From Fimbriimonadaceae bacterium (GTDB lineage Bacteria > Armatimonadota > Fimbriimonadia > Fimbriimonadales > Fimbriimonadaceae): a DNA stretch of 64,000 nt. The stretch's first letter is position 1. The number at the start of each line of letters is the position of its first letter. The translations under genes were made by a program, and so were the position numbers. The notes beneath the pieces were generated by a model that ran no database searches, was not told the DNA's origin, and saw only the letters and a program-made list of their open reading frames with translations. Location: positions 6,260 through 70,259 of the forward strand of contig JAHBTC010000001.1 of NCBI GenBank assembly GCA_019638835.1, in the 5' to 3' direction. Positions 1-49,604 of this stretch are shown in pieces.

Positions 1-2470
1 GCACCTCAAAAACGAGTTCGTCATGGACTTGCAAGAGCATCCGGACGCCGGTGTTTGCAATCAGTTTTTCCACCTGGAGCATGGCGATCTTCACCAGGTC
101 GGCGGCCGTGCCTTGGATAGGGGCATTCATCGCCTGTCTTTCCGCATACATCCTTGCCACGCGATTCCCTGCGTGGATGTCGGGGAAGTACCGGCGTCTC
201 CCGCATAAGGTGGATGTGAACCCTTTCGATCGGGCTTCTTCAACCACGGAATCCGTGAAGCCCTTTACTTGGGGGAACCTCTCGTTGTACTTACGGATCA
301 GTTCTTTGGCTTCCGATACGCTAAATCCGGCTCCCAACTGCTGAGCCAAACCGAAGTCGGTCACGCCATAAAGTACGGCGTAGTTGAGCATCTTGGCGAG
401 ACCTCTTTGTTCCCGAGTAACCTCGTCGGGCGAGGTGTCGAACATTTGGGCGGCCGTCACTCGATGCACATCCACCCGGTCGCGAAAAGCATCTGTAAGT
501 GCCTCGTCTTGACACATGTGCGCGAGAATCCGTAACTCAATCTGGCTGTAGTCGAAGGAGAGTAACTGGTAACCCGGAGCAGCGACGAATGCCCGACGGA
601 TTCTCCGACCCAGTTCTGTCCGGATCGGAATATTTTGTAAATTTGGCTCGTTACTGCTCAGTCTCCCGGTAGCGGCAACCGCTTGGTTGAATTTTGTGTG
701 AATCCGGCCATCATCCGCCAACATTCGAGGAAGCGCGTCGGCATAGGTGCCTTTGAGTTTGGTGAGTTCACGATAAGTGAGGATGCCTGCCGCAACCGGA
801 TGTTCGGCGGCCAACTCCTCAAGTATCTCAGCGCCTGTGGCCCACCCGGTCTTGGTTTTCTTACCGCCGGGCATCTGCATGCGGTCAAACAGCACCTCAC
901 CGATTTGCTTAGGTGAGCCGATATTGAATTCTTCTCCGGCGGCGTCCCACACCTGCTTTTGAACGGCCTCGATCTCGATTTGCAGGTTGTTGCTGTATTC
1001 CTTTAGGTAGCCCGGATCAAGCTTGATCCCGGTGCACTCCATGTCCGCGAGCACAGGCACGAGGGGCAACTCGATCTCCTCCAGAACCGACGTCTGATTC
1101 TCGGCCTTCAATCTTTCTCGCATCGTGGCCTCTAGCGCGGCGAGAGCCGCGACTCGATCCTCGGGCCTTGAGGGTGGCGACGTATCGAGGTACCCAGCGA
1201 TCAGATCGCCAAGATCGTAAGAAGTCCGGCCCGACTGCAAAACATAGCCGCCGAGCATCGTGTCGAACCGGGGCACGACTGAGGATCGGCACGAATGAAA
1301 AAGAGATTTGATGTCGTGGCCCGTGGCCCGGGATGGATCATCCGCAAAGACCGACAAAATATGCTCCCAAGGTGCCTTTGCAACATCCGTGCCCTTAGCG
1401 ATGAACCCATGCGCTGATTCCGTGTTCTCATCCAAAAGGTTAGTTGGAGTTGCGGGCGGCCCCGGAAGAACAGCATAGTTGGAGTCTCCAAGCCACTTTC
1501 GAATCGAGTCAATGGTTCCGAGTGAAACTTCGGAAGTGGCCTGGACAGGTTCCTCTTTGACGGCCGCGACCGTTGCTGCCCCATCGGTTCGGTAAGGGGC
1601 AAAAACCTCTGGAAGTTTCTTGCGGTACGAGCGGAACTCAAGCGACTGCATCATTTCGTCGGCGATCGCTAACGACTCCGCGTCAACGGCGAACGGGGCA
1701 AAGTCGTATTGAAGAGGCACGTCCCGTACAATGGTCGCAAGCCACTTGCTGTGCCGCATCTGCTCTTCCTGTCCAACGAGCTTCTTCCGGAACTTCTCCG
1801 GAATCTCCTCCATTCTGGAGATGATCTCTTCGATGCCGCCGAACTCTTGAATCAGCAGGGTGGCAGTTTTGTCACCGATGCCGGGAACGCCTTTGATATT
1901 GTCGCTCGTGTCGCCGACCAAAGCTTTGTAATCGGTGATGTGCTCCGGTCCGAATCCGTAGCGCTCAACCACAGCAGCCGGGTCGTAGATAACCGTATCA
2001 GTCACCCCGCGTCGCGTGGTCATGACCTGAACGCATTCATCCACGAGTTGCAGGCTGTCTAGGTCGCCCGTGACAATGGTCGTGAGGTAGCCATTCTCTT
2101 CGGCAAGGCGGCTTATTGTTCCCACGATGTCGTCGGCCTCGTAACCAGTCACTGAGATTACAGGGATTTTGAGGGCCTGAATGAACGCCTCGCTACCGTC
2201 CAATTGTTGCTCGAGTTCGGACGGAGTTTCTCGTCTGGTGCCCTTGTATTCCGCATACTCCGCGTGCCTGAAAGTCTTGCCGGGAGCATCGTGCGCCACG
2301 AGAATAGCGTCCGGTTTCACCTGCTCTAGCAGCGTGAAAACCATCCCAAAAAAGCCAAAGAGGGCGTTCGTGGGACGACCATCGCTCGTGCTCAGATAGC
2401 GTGTTCCGTAAAAGGCTCTAAACAGCAAACTGAAGCCGTCAATGATGACGAGGCGACGGCTAGGAGGCAT
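1..2470 (-). CDS. polA: DNA polymerase I, partial (C-terminal end lies beyond the window start)
   Basis: Absent from the ORF track because there is no stop in the window. My reverse-strand translation from ATG at 2470-2468 gives MPPSRRLVIIDGFSLLFRAFY... (5'-nuclease domain), GDTSDNIKGVPGIGDKTA (HhH), then family-A polymerase motifs RLSSNEPNLQNIP, FDYSQIELRILAH, LAKMLNYAVLYG and QVHDELVFE, with the frame open to position 1. Confidence 0.95.
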   Translation of the reverse strand, partial: MPPSRRLVIIDGFSLLFRAFYGTRYLSTSDGRPTNALFGFFGMVFTLLEQVKPDAILVAHDAPGKTFRHAEYAEYKGTRRETPSELEQQLDGSEAFIQALKIPVISVTGYEADDIVGTISRLAEENGYLTTIVTGDLDSLQLVDECVQVMTTRRGVTDTVIYDPAAVVERYGFGPEHITDYKALVGDTSDNIKGVPGIGDKTATLLIQEFGGIEEIISRMEEIPEKFRKKLVGQEEQMRHSKWLATIVRDVPLQYDFAPFAVDAESLAIADEMMQSLEFRSYRKKLPEVFAPYRTDGAATVAAVKEEPVQATSEVSLGTIDSIRKWLGDSNYAVLPGPPATPTNLLDENTESAHGFIAKGTDVAKAPWEHILSVFADDPSRATGHDIKSLFHSCRSSVVPRFDTMLGGYVLQSGRTSYDLGDLIAGYLDTSPPSRPEDRVAALAALEATMRERLKAENQTSVLEEIELPLVPVLADMECTGIKLDPGYLKEYSNNLQIEIEAVQKQVWDAAGEEFNIGSPKQIGEVLFDRMQMPGGKKTKTGWATGAEILEELAAEHPVAAGILTYRELTKLKGTYADALPRMLADDGRIHTKFNQAVAATGRLSSNEPNLQNIPIRTELGRRIRRAFVAAPGYQLLSFDYSQIELRILAHMCQDEALTDAFRDRVDVHRVTAAQMFDTSPDEVTREQRGLAKMLNYAVLYGVTDFGLAQQLGAGFSVSEAKELIRKYNERFPQVKGFTDSVVEEARSKGFTSTLCGRRRYFPDIHAGNRVARMYAERQAMNAPIQGTAADLVKIAMLQVEKLIANTGVRMLLQVHDELVFEV

Positions 2471-42478: not shown

Positions 42479-42699
42479 GTCCGATTACGCACGAATCCAA
42501 GGCGAATTGTCAAGCCTTGTCGCGGAAATGACACCGAAGCACCCCGAAGACGCCAAGCACGTGGCTCACAGTAGAGCCAAGTTGACATTAGAACTGCCCA
42601 CGCAGAATTACTAGTTCTATTGAGTGCTCGGAAGAGGGTTACTGTTAATAAGTTACAATGAAATTCTGTGGCACATTTCGTGTGCAGAGAGGATTTCAA

Positions 42700-43218
42700 A
42701 TGAAACAGATTCTTACCTTAGCGATGGTCTGCTCGCTCGCCGCGAGTGTCATGGCTCAATCCCGAAGTTCGTTCTCGACGGCATTGATTAGTGGTGTCAT
42801 GACGACGCAGACCGGCAACCAGATTGATCTTGCCGTGGCGGCAAATCCAACCCTTACGGTTGCAGGCAATACATACAACATCACCGAAGTCTTCGCCGTC
42901 TACGCTTTGGACAACAACGACGACTTCAGTGCTACGGGCACGAGCCAAAATGGCTGGTCATTCAACAGCAACTACGCGGGTTCTGGCGGCATTGCAGGTT
43001 GGAAAACCAACCCAAACAACGGTATCACGGACCAGAGTCTGACGTTCAACTTCACCTCAACGGTTGGTAGCGCGGAAACGTTCGGTTACCACTTGCGGGT
43101 GGATGGCAACCTCCCTGGCGGCGGGAACACTGGCTACTTCTCCGCTGTTCCAGAACCGGCTTCAATGATCGCTTTCGGAGCTTTCGCGTTAGCCGCTCTT
43201 CGCCGCAAGCGAAAATAA
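42700..43218 (+). CDS. PEP-CTERM sorting-signal protein (paralog 1)
   Basis: Start at ATG 42700 after AGAGAGGA. Signal peptide MKQILTLAMVCSLAASVMAQ and C-terminus VPEPASMIAFGAFALAALRRKRK. Confidence 0.8.
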   Translation: MKQILTLAMVCSLAASVMAQSRSSFSTALISGVMTTQTGNQIDLAVAANPTLTVAGNTYNITEVFAVYALDNNDDFSATGTSQNGWSFNSNYAGSGGIAGWKTNPNNGITDQSLTFNFTSTVGSAETFGYHLRVDGNLPGGGNTGYFSAVPEPASMIAFGAFALAALRRKRK

Positions 43219-43243
43219 GAATCGGCAATCTATCCCGATATGA

Positions 43244-43277
43244 ATACAACCTCCAAATAGGAGGTTGTATTTCTTTA
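43244..43277 (+). terminator. Rho-independent terminator
   Basis: Perfect 11-bp stem ATACAACCTCC / GGAGGTTGTAT, loop AAATA, followed by TTCTTTA. Confidence 0.85.
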
Positions 43278-43429
43278 TCTGAACGATAAATGAATGCCAA
43301 ATGAACGGCAGTTCACGCATTGTGCAAACGGCCCTGTCAAGAATACTGTAGTTGCCCGTTAAGGAACAAAGCAACCGCATTGTATGGTCACAATGGGTGC
43401 GTTGCGTTCGCTTTTGAACGGAGAGAAAG

Positions 43430-43957
43430 ATGAATCGTATCCTTGTTTCACTTGCATTGGTGTCGGTGGAGGCCCTTGGCTTTTCCCAGTCCCGTAGTTC
43501 GTTTCAGATGGCGAACATTTCTGGCGTCAGCGTCATCCCAGCCGGAAACTCATTGGAACTCGTCGTTTCGGCCAACCCGACTTTGACCTTTGATAATGTG
43601 ACCTACAACGTCACCGAAGTGTTTGGTGTCTGGTCGCTCGATAATAACGACGATATGGTTGCTTCTGGCGTGGGCCAGAACGGCTGGTCGTATCACGACA
43701 ACTACTCGGGTAGCGGCGGCATTGCCGGCTGGAAGACCAACCCAAATAACGGCATTCTTGACCAATCGCTCACGTTCAACTATTCGTCACTGGGCGGCGT
43801 TGTCGAGACATACGGCTATCACATCCGTGTGAGTGGCAACCTTCCCGGAGGCGGCAACACGGCGTACTTTACGCAGGCCGTACCGGAACCGGCTTCGATC
43901 GCAGTGCTGGGGATCGGTTTGCTGGGCTTGTCTCGGCGTCGTGCGCGAAAAGCGTAG
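43430..43957 (+). CDS. PEP-CTERM sorting-signal protein (paralog 2)
   Basis: 175 aa, collinear with paralog 1 (QSRSSF, ANPTLT, YN.TEVF, LDNNDD, QNGWS, GSGGIAGWKTNPNNGI.DQSLTFN, GYH.RV.GNLPGGGNT). C-terminus VPEPASIAVLGIGLLGLSRRRARKA. Confidence 0.8.
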   Translation: MNRILVSLALVSVEALGFSQSRSSFQMANISGVSVIPAGNSLELVVSANPTLTFDNVTYNVTEVFGVWSLDNNDDMVASGVGQNGWSYHDNYSGSGGIAGWKTNPNNGILDQSLTFNYSSLGGVVETYGYHIRVSGNLPGGGNTAYFTQAVPEPASIAVLGIGLLGLSRRRARKA

Positions 43958-43974
43958 TCTGACTCGCTAAGAAA

Positions 43975-44001
43975 GCCCCACCCCGACGGGGTGGGGCTTT
44001 T
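43975..44001 (+). terminator. Rho-independent terminator
   Basis: GCCCCACCCC / GGGGTGGGGC, a 10-bp GC-rich stem with a short loop, followed by TTTT. Confidence 0.85.
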
Positions 44002-44097
44002 CCAATTGTGTCCTTGAATAGCCTGAAAAGCTAATAATCAAAGTCGGTGGGCACTCTCGATACGCCACAAAACTAACGATCTGCCATAATCTGCCCC

Positions 44098-45255
44098 ATG
44101 CGCTTCGCGACCCGTGCCCTCCGCGTAGGCCAAGACCCTGACTCCACCTATCGCGCCGTTGTCCCACCGCTCTATCAGTCCACCACGTTCGCGTGGGAGA
44201 GCCTCAACGACATCCCGCCCATTGACTACACCCGTTGCCAGAACCCCAATCGGCAGATGCTGGAGGAAGTCATCGCCTCACTGGAAGGGGGCACCCATTG
44301 CACCGTTTTCAGCAGCGGAATGGCGGCCATCGCGTCCTGTTTCTCCTTGCTCGAGCAGGGCGACCACGTGCTGATGGCGAGTGACATCTACGGCGGCACT
44401 TTCCGGATGGTTGAGCAATACCTGCCGAAGCAGGGCATCACGCACAGCGTCTTCGATGCGCATGATTTTTCGAGCATTGCCAAGGCAGTCACACCGCAGT
44501 CGAAGATGTTGATTTTCGAGACGCCTACCAACCCCACTTTGCGAGTTTCAGACATCGCGGCGGTTTGCGCGGAAGCAAAGCGTCACGGTCTCCTTGTGGT
44601 GTTCGATAATACATTCGCGTCGCCGGCCCTGCAGAATCCGCTTGCCCTCGGGGCGGACATCGTGGTGCATAGCACCACCAAGTACATCAGCGGGCACAGC
44701 GATGTCTTGGGTGGATGCACCGTCACGAGCAACTCCGAACTCGGTTACGCGATTTACGAGTGGAACAAAGCGTACGGAGCGACGCCATCGCCGTTCGATT
44801 GCTGGCTCTCGCTTCGCGGATTGCGGAGCCTTGGGTGCCGCATGGATCGTCATTGCGAAAACGCTCAACGTGTTGCCGAGGCATTCCAAAAACACCCCGC
44901 CGTGAATTCGGTTTCGTATCCAGGACTGCCCGACCACCCTGACCACGCGGTGGCGAAGAAGCAGATGTCCGGTTTCGGCGGGATGCTCGCGATTGAGTTC
45001 CATGAGGAGGCAGTAGCGCGACACGTCGCCGAAAATTGCCAGATCTTCCTTCTCGCCGAATCGCTCGGCGGAGTGGAAAGCCTTATCGCTTACCCACCGC
45101 TGATGAGCCACGCGACGATGAACGAAAGTCAGCGGTTAGAACGTGGAATTCTGCCGACGCTCCTGCGCTTAAGCGTTGGAATCGAGGACGCCGAGGACCT
45201 GATCGAAGACATCGGGCAGGCGATCGCGAGTGCCCCGGTTATGACTCGGGTTTAG
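44098..45255 (+). CDS. PLP-dependent Cys/Met-metabolism enzyme (cystathionine gamma-synthase / beta-lyase family)
   Basis: 385 aa. N-terminus TRALRVGQDPD...PLYQSTTF and the PLP-lysine context HSTTKYISGHSDVLGG. Confidence 0.85.
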   Translation: MRFATRALRVGQDPDSTYRAVVPPLYQSTTFAWESLNDIPPIDYTRCQNPNRQMLEEVIASLEGGTHCTVFSSGMAAIASCFSLLEQGDHVLMASDIYGGTFRMVEQYLPKQGITHSVFDAHDFSSIAKAVTPQSKMLIFETPTNPTLRVSDIAAVCAEAKRHGLLVVFDNTFASPALQNPLALGADIVVHSTTKYISGHSDVLGGCTVTSNSELGYAIYEWNKAYGATPSPFDCWLSLRGLRSLGCRMDRHCENAQRVAEAFQKHPAVNSVSYPGLPDHPDHAVAKKQMSGFGGMLAIEFHEEAVARHVAENCQIFLLAESLGGVESLIAYPPLMSHATMNESQRLERGILPTLLRLSVGIEDAEDLIEDIGQAIASAPVMTRV

Positions 45256-45303
45256 GGACCGAGTTTTGCCACACTGAATGATCGGCGTTCATTTATCTTA
45301 GAA

Positions 45304-46266
45304 GTGACCGATAGTGCCGCCGAGGTATTCGTTGGCAAGGTTGGCATCGCGGGGCCGGGGCACGCTGCCGATTTGGATATTCTTCGCCAGTCGCCCGCTC
45401 CTAATGAGATTGTTTGGGCGACATTGCTTGTGCGTGATGCCCATCAGGTTGAACAATTCGTCTGCGACGAACTTGGATTTCCGCGGGCCACTATGGCAAA
45501 CCTCCGAGGATCGCGCCTTCGGTCGGGTCTCGTTTCAACGGAAAGCCGGTTTGGATTTATGTTTGCTGCGTTGGACATGAACGACCGTTTGGAAACCGTC
45601 GCCGTGTTCTTCGATGGCCAGCGACTCATCACTGTAGTACGAGAGAGGGTAACGCTCCTCGAAGAAAGTTTCAAAGTGTGGCTATCGGATCCGGACGGAT
45701 TAGGCCGAGACATCGGTACATTGTTGGCGCGCCTCCTTTCGGAGATGGCGAATGATTTGGAACCAGTCTTCGAAGCGTTCCACGAGAGGATCGAAGACTT
45801 CGAAGAAGAGTCGCTTAAGCTTGGTGGCGACAACCCCGGTAAAGCGCTGAAAGAGCGGCGTACATTACTATTGCTGCGCCGCAAGATCGCTCCTATGCGA
45901 GATAATGTTCGCGCGCTTGCTCGCCGCAAAGAGATGCTCGGAGCGCAGGTGATAGAGCAATTGAGAGACCTCGGAGATCGAATGAACCACTTGGTGGATG
46001 AGATAGATATTGGGCGGGAGATGGTGCGAGAAGTGGTTGATGCGGAGATGAGTATGACGAGCAACCGCCTGAATCAAATCATGCGAAAAATGACGGTAAT
46101 CACATCTGTACTGGCGGTGGCGACTTTGGTGGCAAGCAACTACGGAATGAATTTTGAGGTGATGCCAGAACTCGCCTGGATCGCCGGATATCCTTTCGCG
46201 ATTACGCTGATGCTCGGACTCTCAGGTTTAACATTGTGGCTGTTCAAGCGTAACGGCTACTTCTGA
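45304..46266 (+). CDS. corA: CorA-family magnesium/cobalt transporter
   Basis: 320 aa. C-terminal TM pair with the YGMNFEVMPEL (GMN) motif. Confidence 0.85.
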   Translation: MTDSAAEVFVGKVGIAGPGHAADLDILRQSPAPNEIVWATLLVRDAHQVEQFVCDELGFPRATMANLRGSRLRSGLVSTESRFGFMFAALDMNDRLETVAVFFDGQRLITVVRERVTLLEESFKVWLSDPDGLGRDIGTLLARLLSEMANDLEPVFEAFHERIEDFEEESLKLGGDNPGKALKERRTLLLLRRKIAPMRDNVRALARRKEMLGAQVIEQLRDLGDRMNHLVDEIDIGREMVREVVDAEMSMTSNRLNQIMRKMTVITSVLAVATLVASNYGMNFEVMPELAWIAGYPFAITLMLGLSGLTLWLFKRNGYF

Positions 46267-46534
46267 TTCTTGGGCGAACTTGGAAGCAGAGTCGTGCAAT
46301 CGGCATCGCGAACAGAATACAAAGGGTCGCCAAAATGATTGACGTGAAAATTTCAATGTCTGTCACAAAATAGCCGATCTTGTAATAGAACTCTCTCACT
46401 TCTTCTGCCAAAAGGTAAGAGTACGGATAAAGAAGGAGGTCCATGACGAGGATCCATATGCTTGCGACACGGATGAGCAATGCGAGAATGCTCACCCCTG
46501 TCACTCTCGATGGAGTAATGCTAGGGAGTTTCAT
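46244..46534 (-). CDS. small hypothetical membrane protein (paralog B, start uncertain)
   Basis: About 96 aa from ATG 46534, two or three hydrophobic segments, C-terminal ...PIARLCFQ. Local GC is low. The 3' end overlaps the corA 3' end by 23 nt, which lowers confidence. Confidence 0.3.
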   Translation of the reverse strand: MKLPSITPSRVTGVSILALLIRVASIWILVMDLLLYPYSYLLAEEVREFYYKIGYFVTDIEIFTSIILATLCILFAMPIARLCFQVRPRIRSSRYA

Positions 46535-46817
46535 CGGCCTCAAGTTCGCCATCTCCCCACAAGTCAATCCTTTTCCAGGCAACTTGCCCGAAGCAAAGTC
46601 GAGCAAAGAAGTCGGCAAAGACAATTCCAGTGAGTCCGATGAGCACTTGGAACAACCCGTAGGAATGGAAGCGAAGTATTTCAGTCAGAGGAGTCGGAGC
46701 CCCATAAGGGCTGACTGGAAGCGAGATAAGGCTGAAGACGAAAACTTTGATTCCGTCCACGCAGGACATAAACCCTATTGCCCGAATAGCAACGCTGAGG
46801 AGCCGCATCGCATCCAT
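46521..46817 (-). CDS. small hypothetical membrane protein (paralog A)
   Basis: 98 aa, hydrophobic. It shares the C-proximal motif F(A)RLCFGQ with the downstream ORF. Confidence 0.35.
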   Translation of the reverse strand: MDAMRLLSVAIRAIGFMSCVDGIKVFVFSLISLPVSPYGAPTPLTEILRFHSYGLFQVLIGLTGIVFADFFARLCFGQVAWKRIDLWGDGELEADETP

Positions 46818-46869
46818 GCCTCATCCTACCGTGTGTGAGTCCAGGCCATTTGTTAGGTTCAAATCAGTA

Positions 46870-47830
46870 AAGCTATGACCACCTTTCGGGACCGTGGAAC
46901 ACGATTCCAACCGGGCACGTCTCACCCCTCACCAAAGCCATCCAGCCCAACTCTTTCGGGATACGGGTCAGATGGGGGCGGCGCGGGGGCTTGGCCCCGC
47001 TATCGGATAAACCGTGGCAACACGGCCAAAGGGTTGGGTGCCTTCCCAATCGCTCCGTGAGGAGACCGCCAAGCAATCCGAGGCTCTGCAATCTTCGTCC
47101 CCTGGGCGGAGCAGAACCGGAAGACCGAAACGAGGATCAACGGCGAGTGCTGCGATCCATGTGGTGGATCGCCCCACCACGAAGTTTCACGCGAAAGGTC
47201 GAAGGGTGAGAGTCAAAGAGGAGGAGACATCGTGTGACCGGTCCGTCGGTAACGCGTTGCTCCAGTCGCTACGGCGTCGGGCTCCTGTCAGGAGTACGCC
47301 GTCTTGGATGACCGTCTGGTACCCGCGGAACGGGGAAGGGCAGGGGGGCGTGGCGCATTTGCTCGCTAACAAGCGAGGAAACGCCTGACCACGCACGTCT
47401 TCTGGGCAATCAAAAAAGAATGGCTCAATAGTAGAGCGCCGAAATGATAATTCGGAAGGTCCGGGTGCGATTCCTGGTTCTTTTGCCAAACGCGAAAGAG
47501 TGGTCCGTGCTGTGACGAAAGCAGCCTGTTTCCTCCGGCTTCGGCCAGGGAGGAGCGAGATGGATGTCGCAACGTCCATCGCGTACTGTCGTGGAGACAG
47601 GGTAGAGAACTTAGCGGTTCTCGAACGGAGGTGTCGAGCCTTCGGCCCGGGGAAGCGGCATAACAGTCCGGCGCGAAAGAGGGTGTCAAACCTCTGAAAA
47701 AAGATGGCGGCTGAGGCGCTTGTCATGCTACGGAGCAATCCGGGTATGGCGGATAAACTCGCTAACCGATACGGCGAGCAGAGAGCGACCAAGAGATCGT
47801 GGAAATCTAGAGCGATTTCATTTAAAAGTT
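46870..47830 (+). ncRNA. candidate large structured non-coding RNA (class unknown; boundaries approximate)
   Basis: About 1 kb with no credible ORF but genome-typical GC. There are at least 14 hand-verified helices, several capped by GCAA, GUGA or cUUCGg loops that read correctly only on the + strand, plus an embedded tRNA-like cloverleaf and a terminator-like hairpin at the 3' side. See findings. Confidence 0.3.
47414..47488 (+). tRNA. non-canonical tRNA-like cloverleaf (anticodon GAU, Ile-like), CCA encoded
   Basis: AAAAGAA-TG-GCTC-AATAGTA-GAGC-G-CCGAA-ATGATAA-TTCGG-AAGGT-CCGGG-TGCGATT-CCTGG-TTCTTTT-G-CCA. All four stems pair. The acceptor stem is almost all A-U, the D loop lacks GG, and the T loop reads TGCGATT rather than TTCRANN. 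Confidence 0.45.
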
Positions 47831-47831
47831 T

Positions 47832-47858
47832 GGCCGGTGGTGTTCTGCACCTCCGGCC
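47832..47858. terminator. terminator-like hairpin, possibly bidirectional
   Basis: GGCCGGTGGTG / CACCTCCGGCC forms 11 bp with one mismatch and loop TTCTG. It is preceded by AAAAGTT and followed by TTTCT, so it could end both the + strand RNA candidate and the minus-strand sulfatase transcript. Confidence 0.5.
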
Positions 47859-47998
47859 TTTCTACATTTACAAACAGTTTCCAAGAAGAACTCAGCAACA
47901 TCTTAGTCGCGAGGCACCCGTAAGTCCATTTCTGAACTAGCAATGGTCAGGAGTGGCTGATAGAGAATCGAGAGCCTATGAGACCGATCTCGCTTGGC

Positions 47999-49459
47999 TT
48001 ATTCATACATTGGCAATATTTCTCTTCCGGTTTCCCGCTCCGTGGGAAACTGAGCCCCTAGCCGATACAACTCCGCCAGAAGATCTGTGGCCAACTCCTT
48101 CATCCGCTCTGGCTGATTACGCTTGACATCACGGGTTTCGCCGAGATCCGCCTGCAAGTTGTACAGTTCCCACCGCCGATCGCCATAGAAGAAGATGGCC
48201 TTGAAGTTGCCTTTTCGGATTGCCGAAAAGGGTTCAAGCCCCGGCCCGCCAAACCCACGGTGGTGCGGGTAGTGCCAAACGTTAGGCGAAACCCGACCCA
48301 CATCTGTGCCGGATCGCACCGCCCCTGCGAAAGACTCCGCGTCAGGGCCGTCAAACGAAACCCCCGCGAGATCGGCAATCGTATCGGCGAGGTCAGAGCC
48401 AACTATCCAGGTCTTGTCGAGGGTCGCCCCGCGAGCCACCCCCGCTCCCGAAAACACAAGCGGCACCCGGTATCCCCCTTCGTAGGCCGAACCTTTCCCG
48501 CTTCGCAGGGGCAAGTTATGCAGATTGGGAAAGCCACCTCGCGCCGTCTGCGAGAGTCCGCCGTTGTCGCTCGTGAACACGAAGATCGTATTATCCAATT
48601 GGTTGGCCTCGCGAAGAGTGTTTATGAGCGTGCCGATTGCGGCATCGCAGGTTTCCACCATCGTGGCGTACGCCGCCTCGGTCTCGTTCATCCCGGTGTA
48701 ATTCGCAAGGAACCGAGCGTTCGCCGTTATTGGTGTGTGAACGCTGTACGGCGAGAACCACACGAACACGGGCTTGTTTGATTGCAACGAAATCTTGATG
48801 TCCTTGGCGGCCTCGATTGCAAGTGCATCGTCAAGAAACACATCTTTGCCGTGGTACGCGGCAAGATCGGGGACATCGTTGTGTGCGGGTGGCGCCCCAG
48901 GTTCAGATGTGGCGGCGGCAAAATTCCGGGTTCCGAGGTAACTGCTGGGGTGACCCGCCGCCGATCCCCCAATTGAGCGTTCAAATCCGAGATTCTCGGG
49001 ATCAGCGCCCGCCGTTCCGCCTGCACCGAAGTGAGCTTTTCCGACCTGCAAAGTGTGGTAGCCCGCTTTGCGGAATGCCTCTGCTAACGTGGGTGCGTCC
49101 CCCGGTTGGAACCCGATCTTTCTCCAATCGGGGAGGTCGATCTCGGGGTGCGGTCCGTCGGTTTCTTGGCCACTATGCACCCAACTCGTCACATGATTAC
49201 GGGCCGGATTCTCACCGGTGAGTAACGCTACTCGCGAGGGGGTACATACCGGACAAGAGGCGTAAGCCTGATTAACCTGAACACCGTTGCGGGCGAGTCC
49301 GTCGAGAACAGGAGTCCGAAAATGCCTGCCGACCAACTTCTCGTCCAGCCCGAACGCCAGAGAAGTATCTTGCCAACCCAAATCGTCAATGAGGATGAGA
49401 ACGACGTTGGGCGGAGTAGCCGTAACCAAGCTTGCCGAAAGCAGGAGAGAGGCGAACAT
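47999..49459 (-). CDS. formylglycine-dependent sulfatase (arylsulfatase family)
   Basis: 486 aa. Signal peptide, then LILIDDLGWQD, CPVCTPSRVALLTGE (C-x-P-x-R) and GKAHFG. Confidence 0.9.
   Translation of the reverse strand: MFASLLLSASLVTATPPNVVLILIDDLGWQDTSLAFGLDEKLVGRHFRTPVLDGLARNGVQVNQAYASCPVCTPSRVALLTGENPARNHVTSWVHSGQETDGPHPEIDLPDWRKIGFQPGDAPTLAEAFRKAGYHTLQVGKAHFGAGGTAGADPENLGFERSIGGSAAGHPSSYLGTRNFAAATSEPGAPPAHNDVPDLAAYHGKDVFLDDALAIEAAKDIKISLQSNKPVFVWFSPYSVHTPITANARFLANYTGMNETEAAYATMVETCDAAIGTLINTLREANQLDNTIFVFTSDNGGLSQTARGGFPNLHNLPLRSGKGSAYEGGYRVPLVFSGAGVARGATLDKTWIVGSDLADTIADLAGVSFDGPDAESFAGAVRSGTDVGRVSPNVWHYPHHRGFGGPGLEPFSAIRKGNFKAIFFYGDRRWELYNLQADLGETRDVKRNQPERMKELATDLLAELYRLGAQFPTERETGREILPMYE

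Positions 49460-49523: not shown

Positions 49524-49604
<81 letters not shown>

Follow-up and report, generated by a model that had tools for sequence, protein, structure and literature searches.

GOLLD RNAs, which typically occur in phages, prophages and tRNA arrays, form RNA cages whose structures have been solved (the env-38 14-mer and the Streptococcus agalactiae 12-mer; PMC12286853, PMC12990946), but the function of these cages is not known. [quoted passage not shown] A tRNA-Phe lies in the linker of a GOLLD in a Mycolicibacterium tRNA array (PMC12990946), and for a mycobacterial GOLLD pseudo-tRNA no separate RNA was detected (PMC6582537). A review has put forward "inhibited storage" of the linker tRNA (PMC12990946), and what the literature says on the role of these tRNAs is pure speculation. 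Here we have analyzed a 64,000-nt stretch of Fimbriimonadaceae DNA (the window), in which an earlier note had described a non-canonical tRNA-Ile(GAU)-like cloverleaf 2 kb from the canonical gene.

The cloverleaf lies in the linker of a divergent GOLLD RNA

ARAGORN called four tRNAs in the 64-kb window, among them a tRNA-Ile(GAU) exactly at 47414-47488 on the forward strand and the canonical one at 49524-49600 on the reverse strand. In a permissive Rfam search GOLLD (RF02032) matched at 47343-47815 with 84.6 bits (E 5.2e-22), complete over model positions 1-416, and the cloverleaf falls within the unpaired linker of this model. The GOLLD model gave no match in 14 control genomes. The window copy scores below the Rfam gathering threshold for GOLLD (150 bits), as do its relatives (64-109 bits), and its score is lowered by the inserted tRNA and the high GC. 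We class the window RNA as a divergent variant of GOLLD and not as a standard member. Its parts are:

46983-47819, forward strand: conserved body of the GOLLD RNA, 837 nt (upstream limit set by homologues; 46980-47822 folds with z -5.05)
46983-47405, forward strand: 5' domain, whose last hairpin (47343-47405) corresponds to the one with which the Rfam GOLLD model begins
47406-47491, forward strand: variable linker, almost all cloverleaf (78-89 nt in homologues)
47414-47488, forward strand: tRNA-like cloverleaf occupying the linker (ARAGORN, Rfam, fold of the 75-mer)
47492-47819, forward strand: 3' domain, the conserved GOLLD core (RF02032), with terminal hairpin at 47793-47819
47522-47526, forward strand: CAGCC, candidate J13/15-L20 long-range strand, with its complement GGCUG at 47709-47713
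49524-49600, reverse strand: canonical tRNA-Ile(GAU), outside the element and used for comparison only

The window RNA resembles known GOLLD RNAs in its length (about 840 nt), its division into a 5' and a 3' domain and the place of its variable linker, and it also has the terminal hairpin, the GGAUA...AUAAU region and candidate long-range strands, complementary to each other, at the places expected from RF02032. For the 5' domain (16 homologues) RNAalifold predicted 125 pairs, of which 71 are changed on both sides, and for the 3' domain (15 homologues) 91 pairs, of which 54 are; this covariation in both domains supports the two-domain GOLLD architecture. CAGCC and GGCUG are complementary in 16 of 16 homologues but invariant within the branch; at the aligned places the Rfam consensus reads GUGAC/GUCAC, so that neither strand agrees with it. 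We regard this pair as a candidate for the J13/15-L20 bridge. All 19 viral loci checked were true GOLLDs with 206-332 bits, compared with 64-109 bits in the branch. At the sequence level the 5' domain matched none of the 121 viral loci sampled (nhmmer), although the 3' domain barely matched them too and variability of the 5' region is a known feature of GOLLD.

We read the element as a tRNA-shaped part of a GOLLD RNA rather than as a tRNA gene in its own right. This agrees with one suggestion of the earlier note, a tRNA mimic embedded in a larger RNA: the larger RNA is GOLLD, and each homologue has the cloverleaf in this position. Linker tRNAs in GOLLD are already published, and the window element alone is an example of that kind; taken by itself it would wrongly be annotated as another tRNA-Ile gene.

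Distribution and genomic context of the branch

The branch was present in 15 of the 175 genomes of Fimbriimonadaceae and in none of the 53 genomes from other families of the order; named records that carry it are mostly Fimbriimonadaceae as well. A phylum-wide search outside the family gave tRNA matches only and no branch homologue. No copy was found in phage records or in the plasmid and viral collections, the pattern matches in viral contigs being due to chance. The contig pattern matches L019 and L023 were also rejected as chance. Two record titles look like mislabels, since L016 ("Chthonomonas sp.") is identical to the locus of genome G025 and L028 ("Methanoregulaceae archaeon") to that of G020, both genomes being placed in Fimbriimonadaceae.

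In each genome examined the copies are solitary, without a tRNA array, and surrounded by ordinary genes that vary between genomes: corA/metB and a sulfatase gene in the window, and aldolase, sulfate permease, antiporter, typA or peptidase genes elsewhere. In contrast to the typical GOLLD context of phage, prophage or tRNA array, the branch consists of solitary chromosomal genes among housekeeping genes, with an ECF-type promoter motif at most loci. No phage genes, tRNA array or HNH gene were seen beside the window GOLLD, and the sole match to the one terminase family searched for is on a different contig. Synteny is uninformative, because congeners have the flanking genes at scattered places. 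In a recA tree, unresolved at depth, the pairs G064/G160 and G020/G210 agree with descent and G142 does not. The GC content of the branch is about 56-63%.

Some features of the neighbourhoods were also recorded. Upstream of the window RNA (46244-46817, reverse strand) are two small hydrophobic ORFs with a common ARLCF motif, which had no PHROG match and did not appear next to homologous RNAs. Over 42658-49459 of the window, two PEP-CTERM genes that directly adjoin the sulfatase gene in congeners are separated from it by metB and corA, the two small ORFs and the GOLLD gene. The only defence-like neighbour seen was a weak Abi_2 (Abi-like) match (L073:5791-6576, reverse strand), which lies some 800 nt from the G064 copy on its upstream side. 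A 23S rRNA fragment (L030:1-497) lies directly upstream of one copy and overlaps the GOLLD start, on a 1.2-kb metagenome contig that is possibly an assembly chimera. Genome G026 has two branch copies, L005 (contig C297) and L008 (C291), with scaffolds 87% alike.

Structure of the cloverleaf

The four tRNA stems and the encoded CCA reported earlier were confirmed by ARAGORN, by an Rfam RF00005 score of 60.2 bits (cut-off 29; canonical tRNA-Ile 77.1 bits) and by complete pairing of the stems (7+4+5+5). ARAGORN made no call in 50 Markov-1 copies of the window, so the cloverleaf is not a product of chance. The minimum-energy fold of the isolated 75-mer is the cloverleaf, albeit a weak one, and its folding energy (-18.7 kcal/mol) is not significant (z -0.62).

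Also as previously described are the AU-rich acceptor stem AAAAGAA/TTCTTTT, with A1-U72 as its terminal pair, the T loop TGCGATT with G at the place of U55, and the discriminator G73, which precedes the CCA (GCCA). The statement that the D loop AATAGTA lacks the G18G19 pair was correct in that there is no GG; G19 is retained, however, and G18 alone is changed (to A). We noted A32 and G9 as further deviations. The G18-U55 contact is altered on its two sides together (A18, G55), and U8, A14, A15-U48, G19-C56, U54-A58, U33 and A37 are retained. GG and GTTC were present in 35 of 35 short-arm host tRNAs examined, which makes these deviations unusual in the host genome.

The loop triplet GAU is at 47446-47448. 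Of the Ile identity set the anticodon, A37 and U12-A23 are retained, and G73, A4-U69 and G29-C41 stand instead of A73, C4-G69 and C29-G41, which are Ile determinants by E. coli rules (PMC9976931), from which those of the host may differ. With a canonical bacterial tRNA-Ile(GAU) the module has in common the cloverleaf, GAU, A37, A38, U12-A23 and CCA, whereas it differs by A1-U72, the AU-rich acceptor, A18, A32, G55, G73, the lack of C4-G69 and C29-G41, and its embedding in a long RNA. In being non-canonical, at the same position and doubtful as a mature tRNA, it is similar to the mycobacterial linker tRNAs and pseudo-tRNAs.

Possibly, the cage stores a precursor, that is, a real tRNA freed on demand by RNase P and 3' nucleases, either as an extra tRNA-Ile or as a cut site by which the cage is opened or turned over. 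The window copy has the fully paired acceptor, GCCA, U8, A14, G19, C56, A58 and Ile-type loop (GAU, A37, A38) for this, and the published storage proposal and the CCA of 7 out of 17 homologues point the same way. On the other hand, it is without A73, C4-G69, C29-G41, G18 and U55 in a host that already has a canonical tRNA-Ile(GAU), and among the homologues CCA is missing in 10 of 17 and pair 1:72 in 10 of 16, two have 8-nt anticodon loops and three a remodelled T loop. We therefore consider a stored precursor unlikely.

Relation to the neighbouring tRNA-Ile

The earlier note suggested derivation from the adjacent tRNA-Ile, possibly as a decaying duplicate, and the identical anticodon and D stem at a distance of 2 kb would fit with such an event. 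However, the cloverleaf and the canonical tRNA-Ile are identical at 41 of 75 positions, fewer than unrelated host tRNAs share on average (45.5, sd 5.4); the corresponding values are 47 for host tRNA-Asp and 45 for tRNA-Trp. By its anticodon arm the window copy is not Ile-like (Ile is only rank 9 among the amino acids), and the D stem is generic, as it occurs in 16 of 17 homologous modules irrespective of anticodon. Moreover, the homologous loci of relatives have different triplets in this place and no tRNA-Ile close by, and five congeners keep the tRNA-Ile/PQQ-repeat/dprA/nagA block with the RNA missing. The proposed derivation is not supported, and duplication and decay of the neighbouring gene is highly improbable. 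Neither a flanking direct repeat of at least 10 nt nor an att-like repeat was found around the element, and a search for a further copy of the 3' end of tRNA-Ile gave none; thus, we see no sign of a tRNA-Ile-integrated island. The designation as a phage-type tRNA holds for the likely ancestry only, given the lack of phage genes, tRNA array and flanking or att-like repeats at this locus.

Conservation of the module among homologues

When the homologous loci were compared, all 18 distinct branch copies proved to have a cloverleaf at this place in the linker, with at least seven triplet values overall, in contrast to the occasional linker tRNAs described so far. Among distinct viral GOLLD loci from a GOLLD-motif scan, a motif-biased sample, 2 of 79 had a linker tRNA. 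Two viral GOLLDs located in tRNA arrays, L253 and L255, carry degenerate linker tRNAs (Gln UUG-like, and Lys-like with an 8-nt loop), and a tmRNA gene was seen near several viral loci (L219, L231, L234 and L242).

In the branch the triplets of the 7-nt loops are GAU (four copies), AAU (three), CAU, AAG, UGG and GCA (two each) and AUC (one); two further copies have 8-nt anticodon loops, and A34 occurs in 5 of 17 parsed modules. The inner four anticodon-stem pairs are formed in 67 of 68 cases (shuffle mean 40.7, maximum 54) and those of the T stem likewise in 67 of 68 (shuffle mean 48.4, maximum 59), with the reservation that the shuffle tests are inflated by relatedness, as 18 related sequences represent a limited number of independent events. 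Acceptor pairs 3-6 are present in 16 of 16 modules, 2:71 in 10 and 1:72 in 6, G1 is found in 1 of 17, and CCA, at 7 of 17, is far above chance. Between copies L010 and L018 three anticodon-stem pairs are changed on both sides, and between L004 and L022 pair 29:41 is. The most remodelled module, in genome G208 (L203, about 1765-1833, reverse strand), keeps the four stems but has a GCAA tetraloop for the T loop and a 5-nt D loop; its triplet AUC is the reverse complement of the window's GAU. Hence, the stems and most elbow bases are maintained, and the anticodon, the acceptor end and CCA vary.

Identity between G064 and G160 is 96% in the scaffold, 76% in the module and 40% at fourfold-degenerate recA sites, so the module is constrained, although more loosely than the scaffold. 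Across homologues the mean is 59% for the module and 74% for the scaffold. Similarities are mosaic, with L008/L022 at 83% in the module and 79% in the scaffold and L010/L031 at 61% and 91%, respectively, and a relative from a soil library with a scaffold about 90% identical carries a different 86-nt linker. This indicates that exchange or rapid remodelling of the module occurs. The fast divergence, the mosaic similarities and the soil linker, together with the lack of a linker tRNA in most viral GOLLD loci sampled, would all be expected if the module were a relic without a role of its own, which an ancestral phage GOLLD captured and which now decays or is replaced through recombination with tRNAs of the host. 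Against this, the cloverleaf has been lost in none of the 18 copies, compensatory stem changes are found even between close relatives (the pairs L010/L018 and L004/L022), and module identity exceeds the neutral benchmark. We find a relic rather improbable.

Promoter motif and possible transcript ends

Two sequences outside the conserved body may mark the limits of the gene:

46896-46924, forward strand: putative ECF-sigma-type promoter motif, GGAAC-N17-CGTC-TCA (motif type PMC3397946)
47832-47869, forward strand: GC-rich hairpin with T-rich tail, possible intrinsic terminator (-21.8 kcal/mol; missed by a strict scan)

A GGAAC -35 and a CGTC -10 element, 16-17 nt apart, have been described for ECF sigma promoters (PMC3397946). 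The motif implies a transcript start near 46930, which would be followed by a variable leader to 46982. A GAAC-N16/17-CGTC motif is found 58-103 nt before the first conserved hairpin in 11 of the 16 loci with usable 5' flank (11 of 15 with a located 5' end, the sixteenth being without the motif), compared with a background of 0.7% of random 130-nt windows. No sigma-70 promoter was found for the GOLLD gene. The host has 17 sigma region-4 matches; the motif was upstream of none of the 15 host sigma genes checked, so no autoregulation was seen, and it is hardly enriched across the host genome. The possible terminator faces the convergent sulfatase gene.

Near-identical contigs were recovered from two wastewater RNA libraries of one study (309 nt with one difference and 337 nt with two), which shows presence, not transcription, and a third RNA library held a relative with the same module, again as presence only. 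No contig in four RNA libraries spanned the flanking genes. Since the runs were chosen by the GOLLD gene and contigs drop sequence, library contigs were not counted as evidence for transcription or for transcript ends.

A tethered tRNA mimic as the favored reading

As the cloverleaf is present in every copy found while the anticodon varies freely, its shape, rather than decoding, probably matters in the branch. The reading we lean towards, with some confidence, is that the module is a tRNA mimic which stays tethered and does not mature to a tRNA used in decoding, because pair 1:72, CCA and the triplet are free while the anticodon and T stems compensate. What speaks against it is that the window copy is among the few with seven of seven acceptor pairs and GCCA and could therefore be excised and matured, that CCA is well above chance level in the branch, and that the GOLLD score is below the Rfam cut-off. 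Supply of Ile-tRNA by the module is unlikely.

By analogy with the solved GOLLD structures, a transcript of about 840-890 nt would form an RNA cage, its linker and cloverleaf turned to the interior. The gene, now chromosomal and outside a phage, may be driven by a host ECF sigma factor under stress. The mimic would then be bound by its shape, and not by anticodon or aminoacyl identity, by putative host machinery with specificity for the elbow and arms of tRNAs. The ribosome and tRNA-processing or tRNA-cleaving enzymes are candidate partners, for which the module might serve as a docking site or decoy.

In the literature searched we did not find the divergent chromosomal branch, its promoter motif or an always-present module with a free anticodon. 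The 18 modules form a natural series in which the shape is kept and the anticodon, acceptor end and loops are changed, which argues against simple tRNA supply and indicates which features to mutate. In addition, a phage-free chromosomal gene with a stress-type promoter motif would allow GOLLD to be studied apart from infection.

Loop triplets and host tRNAs

A different kind of role would follow if the module were an "anti-tRNA", i.e. a host-type tRNA with its anticodon swapped for the matching codon, so that loop-loop pairing could bring the host tRNA to the cage or inside it. When the triplet is masked, the body of L010 matches host tRNA-Trp at 48 of 53 positions and the loop shows UGG. The best match of L021 is tRNA-Asp and it shows GAU, that of L022 is tRNA-Ala(UGC) (49 of 57) with GCA in an 8-nt loop, and the arm common to L005 and L008 best matches tRNA-Lys(CUU) and shows AAG. 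In a permutation test P was 0.04 for the triplet as codon versus 0.79 for the triplet as anticodon; the P is optimistic, as the idea was drawn from the same data, and three AAU copies were left out because tRNA-Asn is missing from the host assembly. Furthermore, the loop of tRNA-Ala has a GCA of its own, the pattern could arise without function through small inversions of the loop, most lineages do not fit, and the window copy, with Asp and Ile both at rank 9, agrees with neither the codon nor the anticodon reading. Codon display is thus a doubtful explanation.

The most far-reaching version would be a phage-derived RNA nanocage domesticated as a Fimbriimonadaceae ECF-sigma stress gene, whose obligatory module is an exchangeable bait, showing the codon of its parent tRNA in several lineages, that could capture host tRNAs. 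We put this forward as a speculative proposal of low probability.

Among the host ARAGORN calls listed, tRNA-Asn and tRNA-Lys(UUU) are missing, and the assembly may be incomplete; the tRNA-Arg with anticodon GCG is at G000 C140:8939-9014, with no ACG gene among these calls. In the genome with two branch copies, L005 and L008 have identical anticodon arms (AAG) and different acceptor stems, that of L005 resembling the acceptor of the window copy and that of L008 being the same as in L032.
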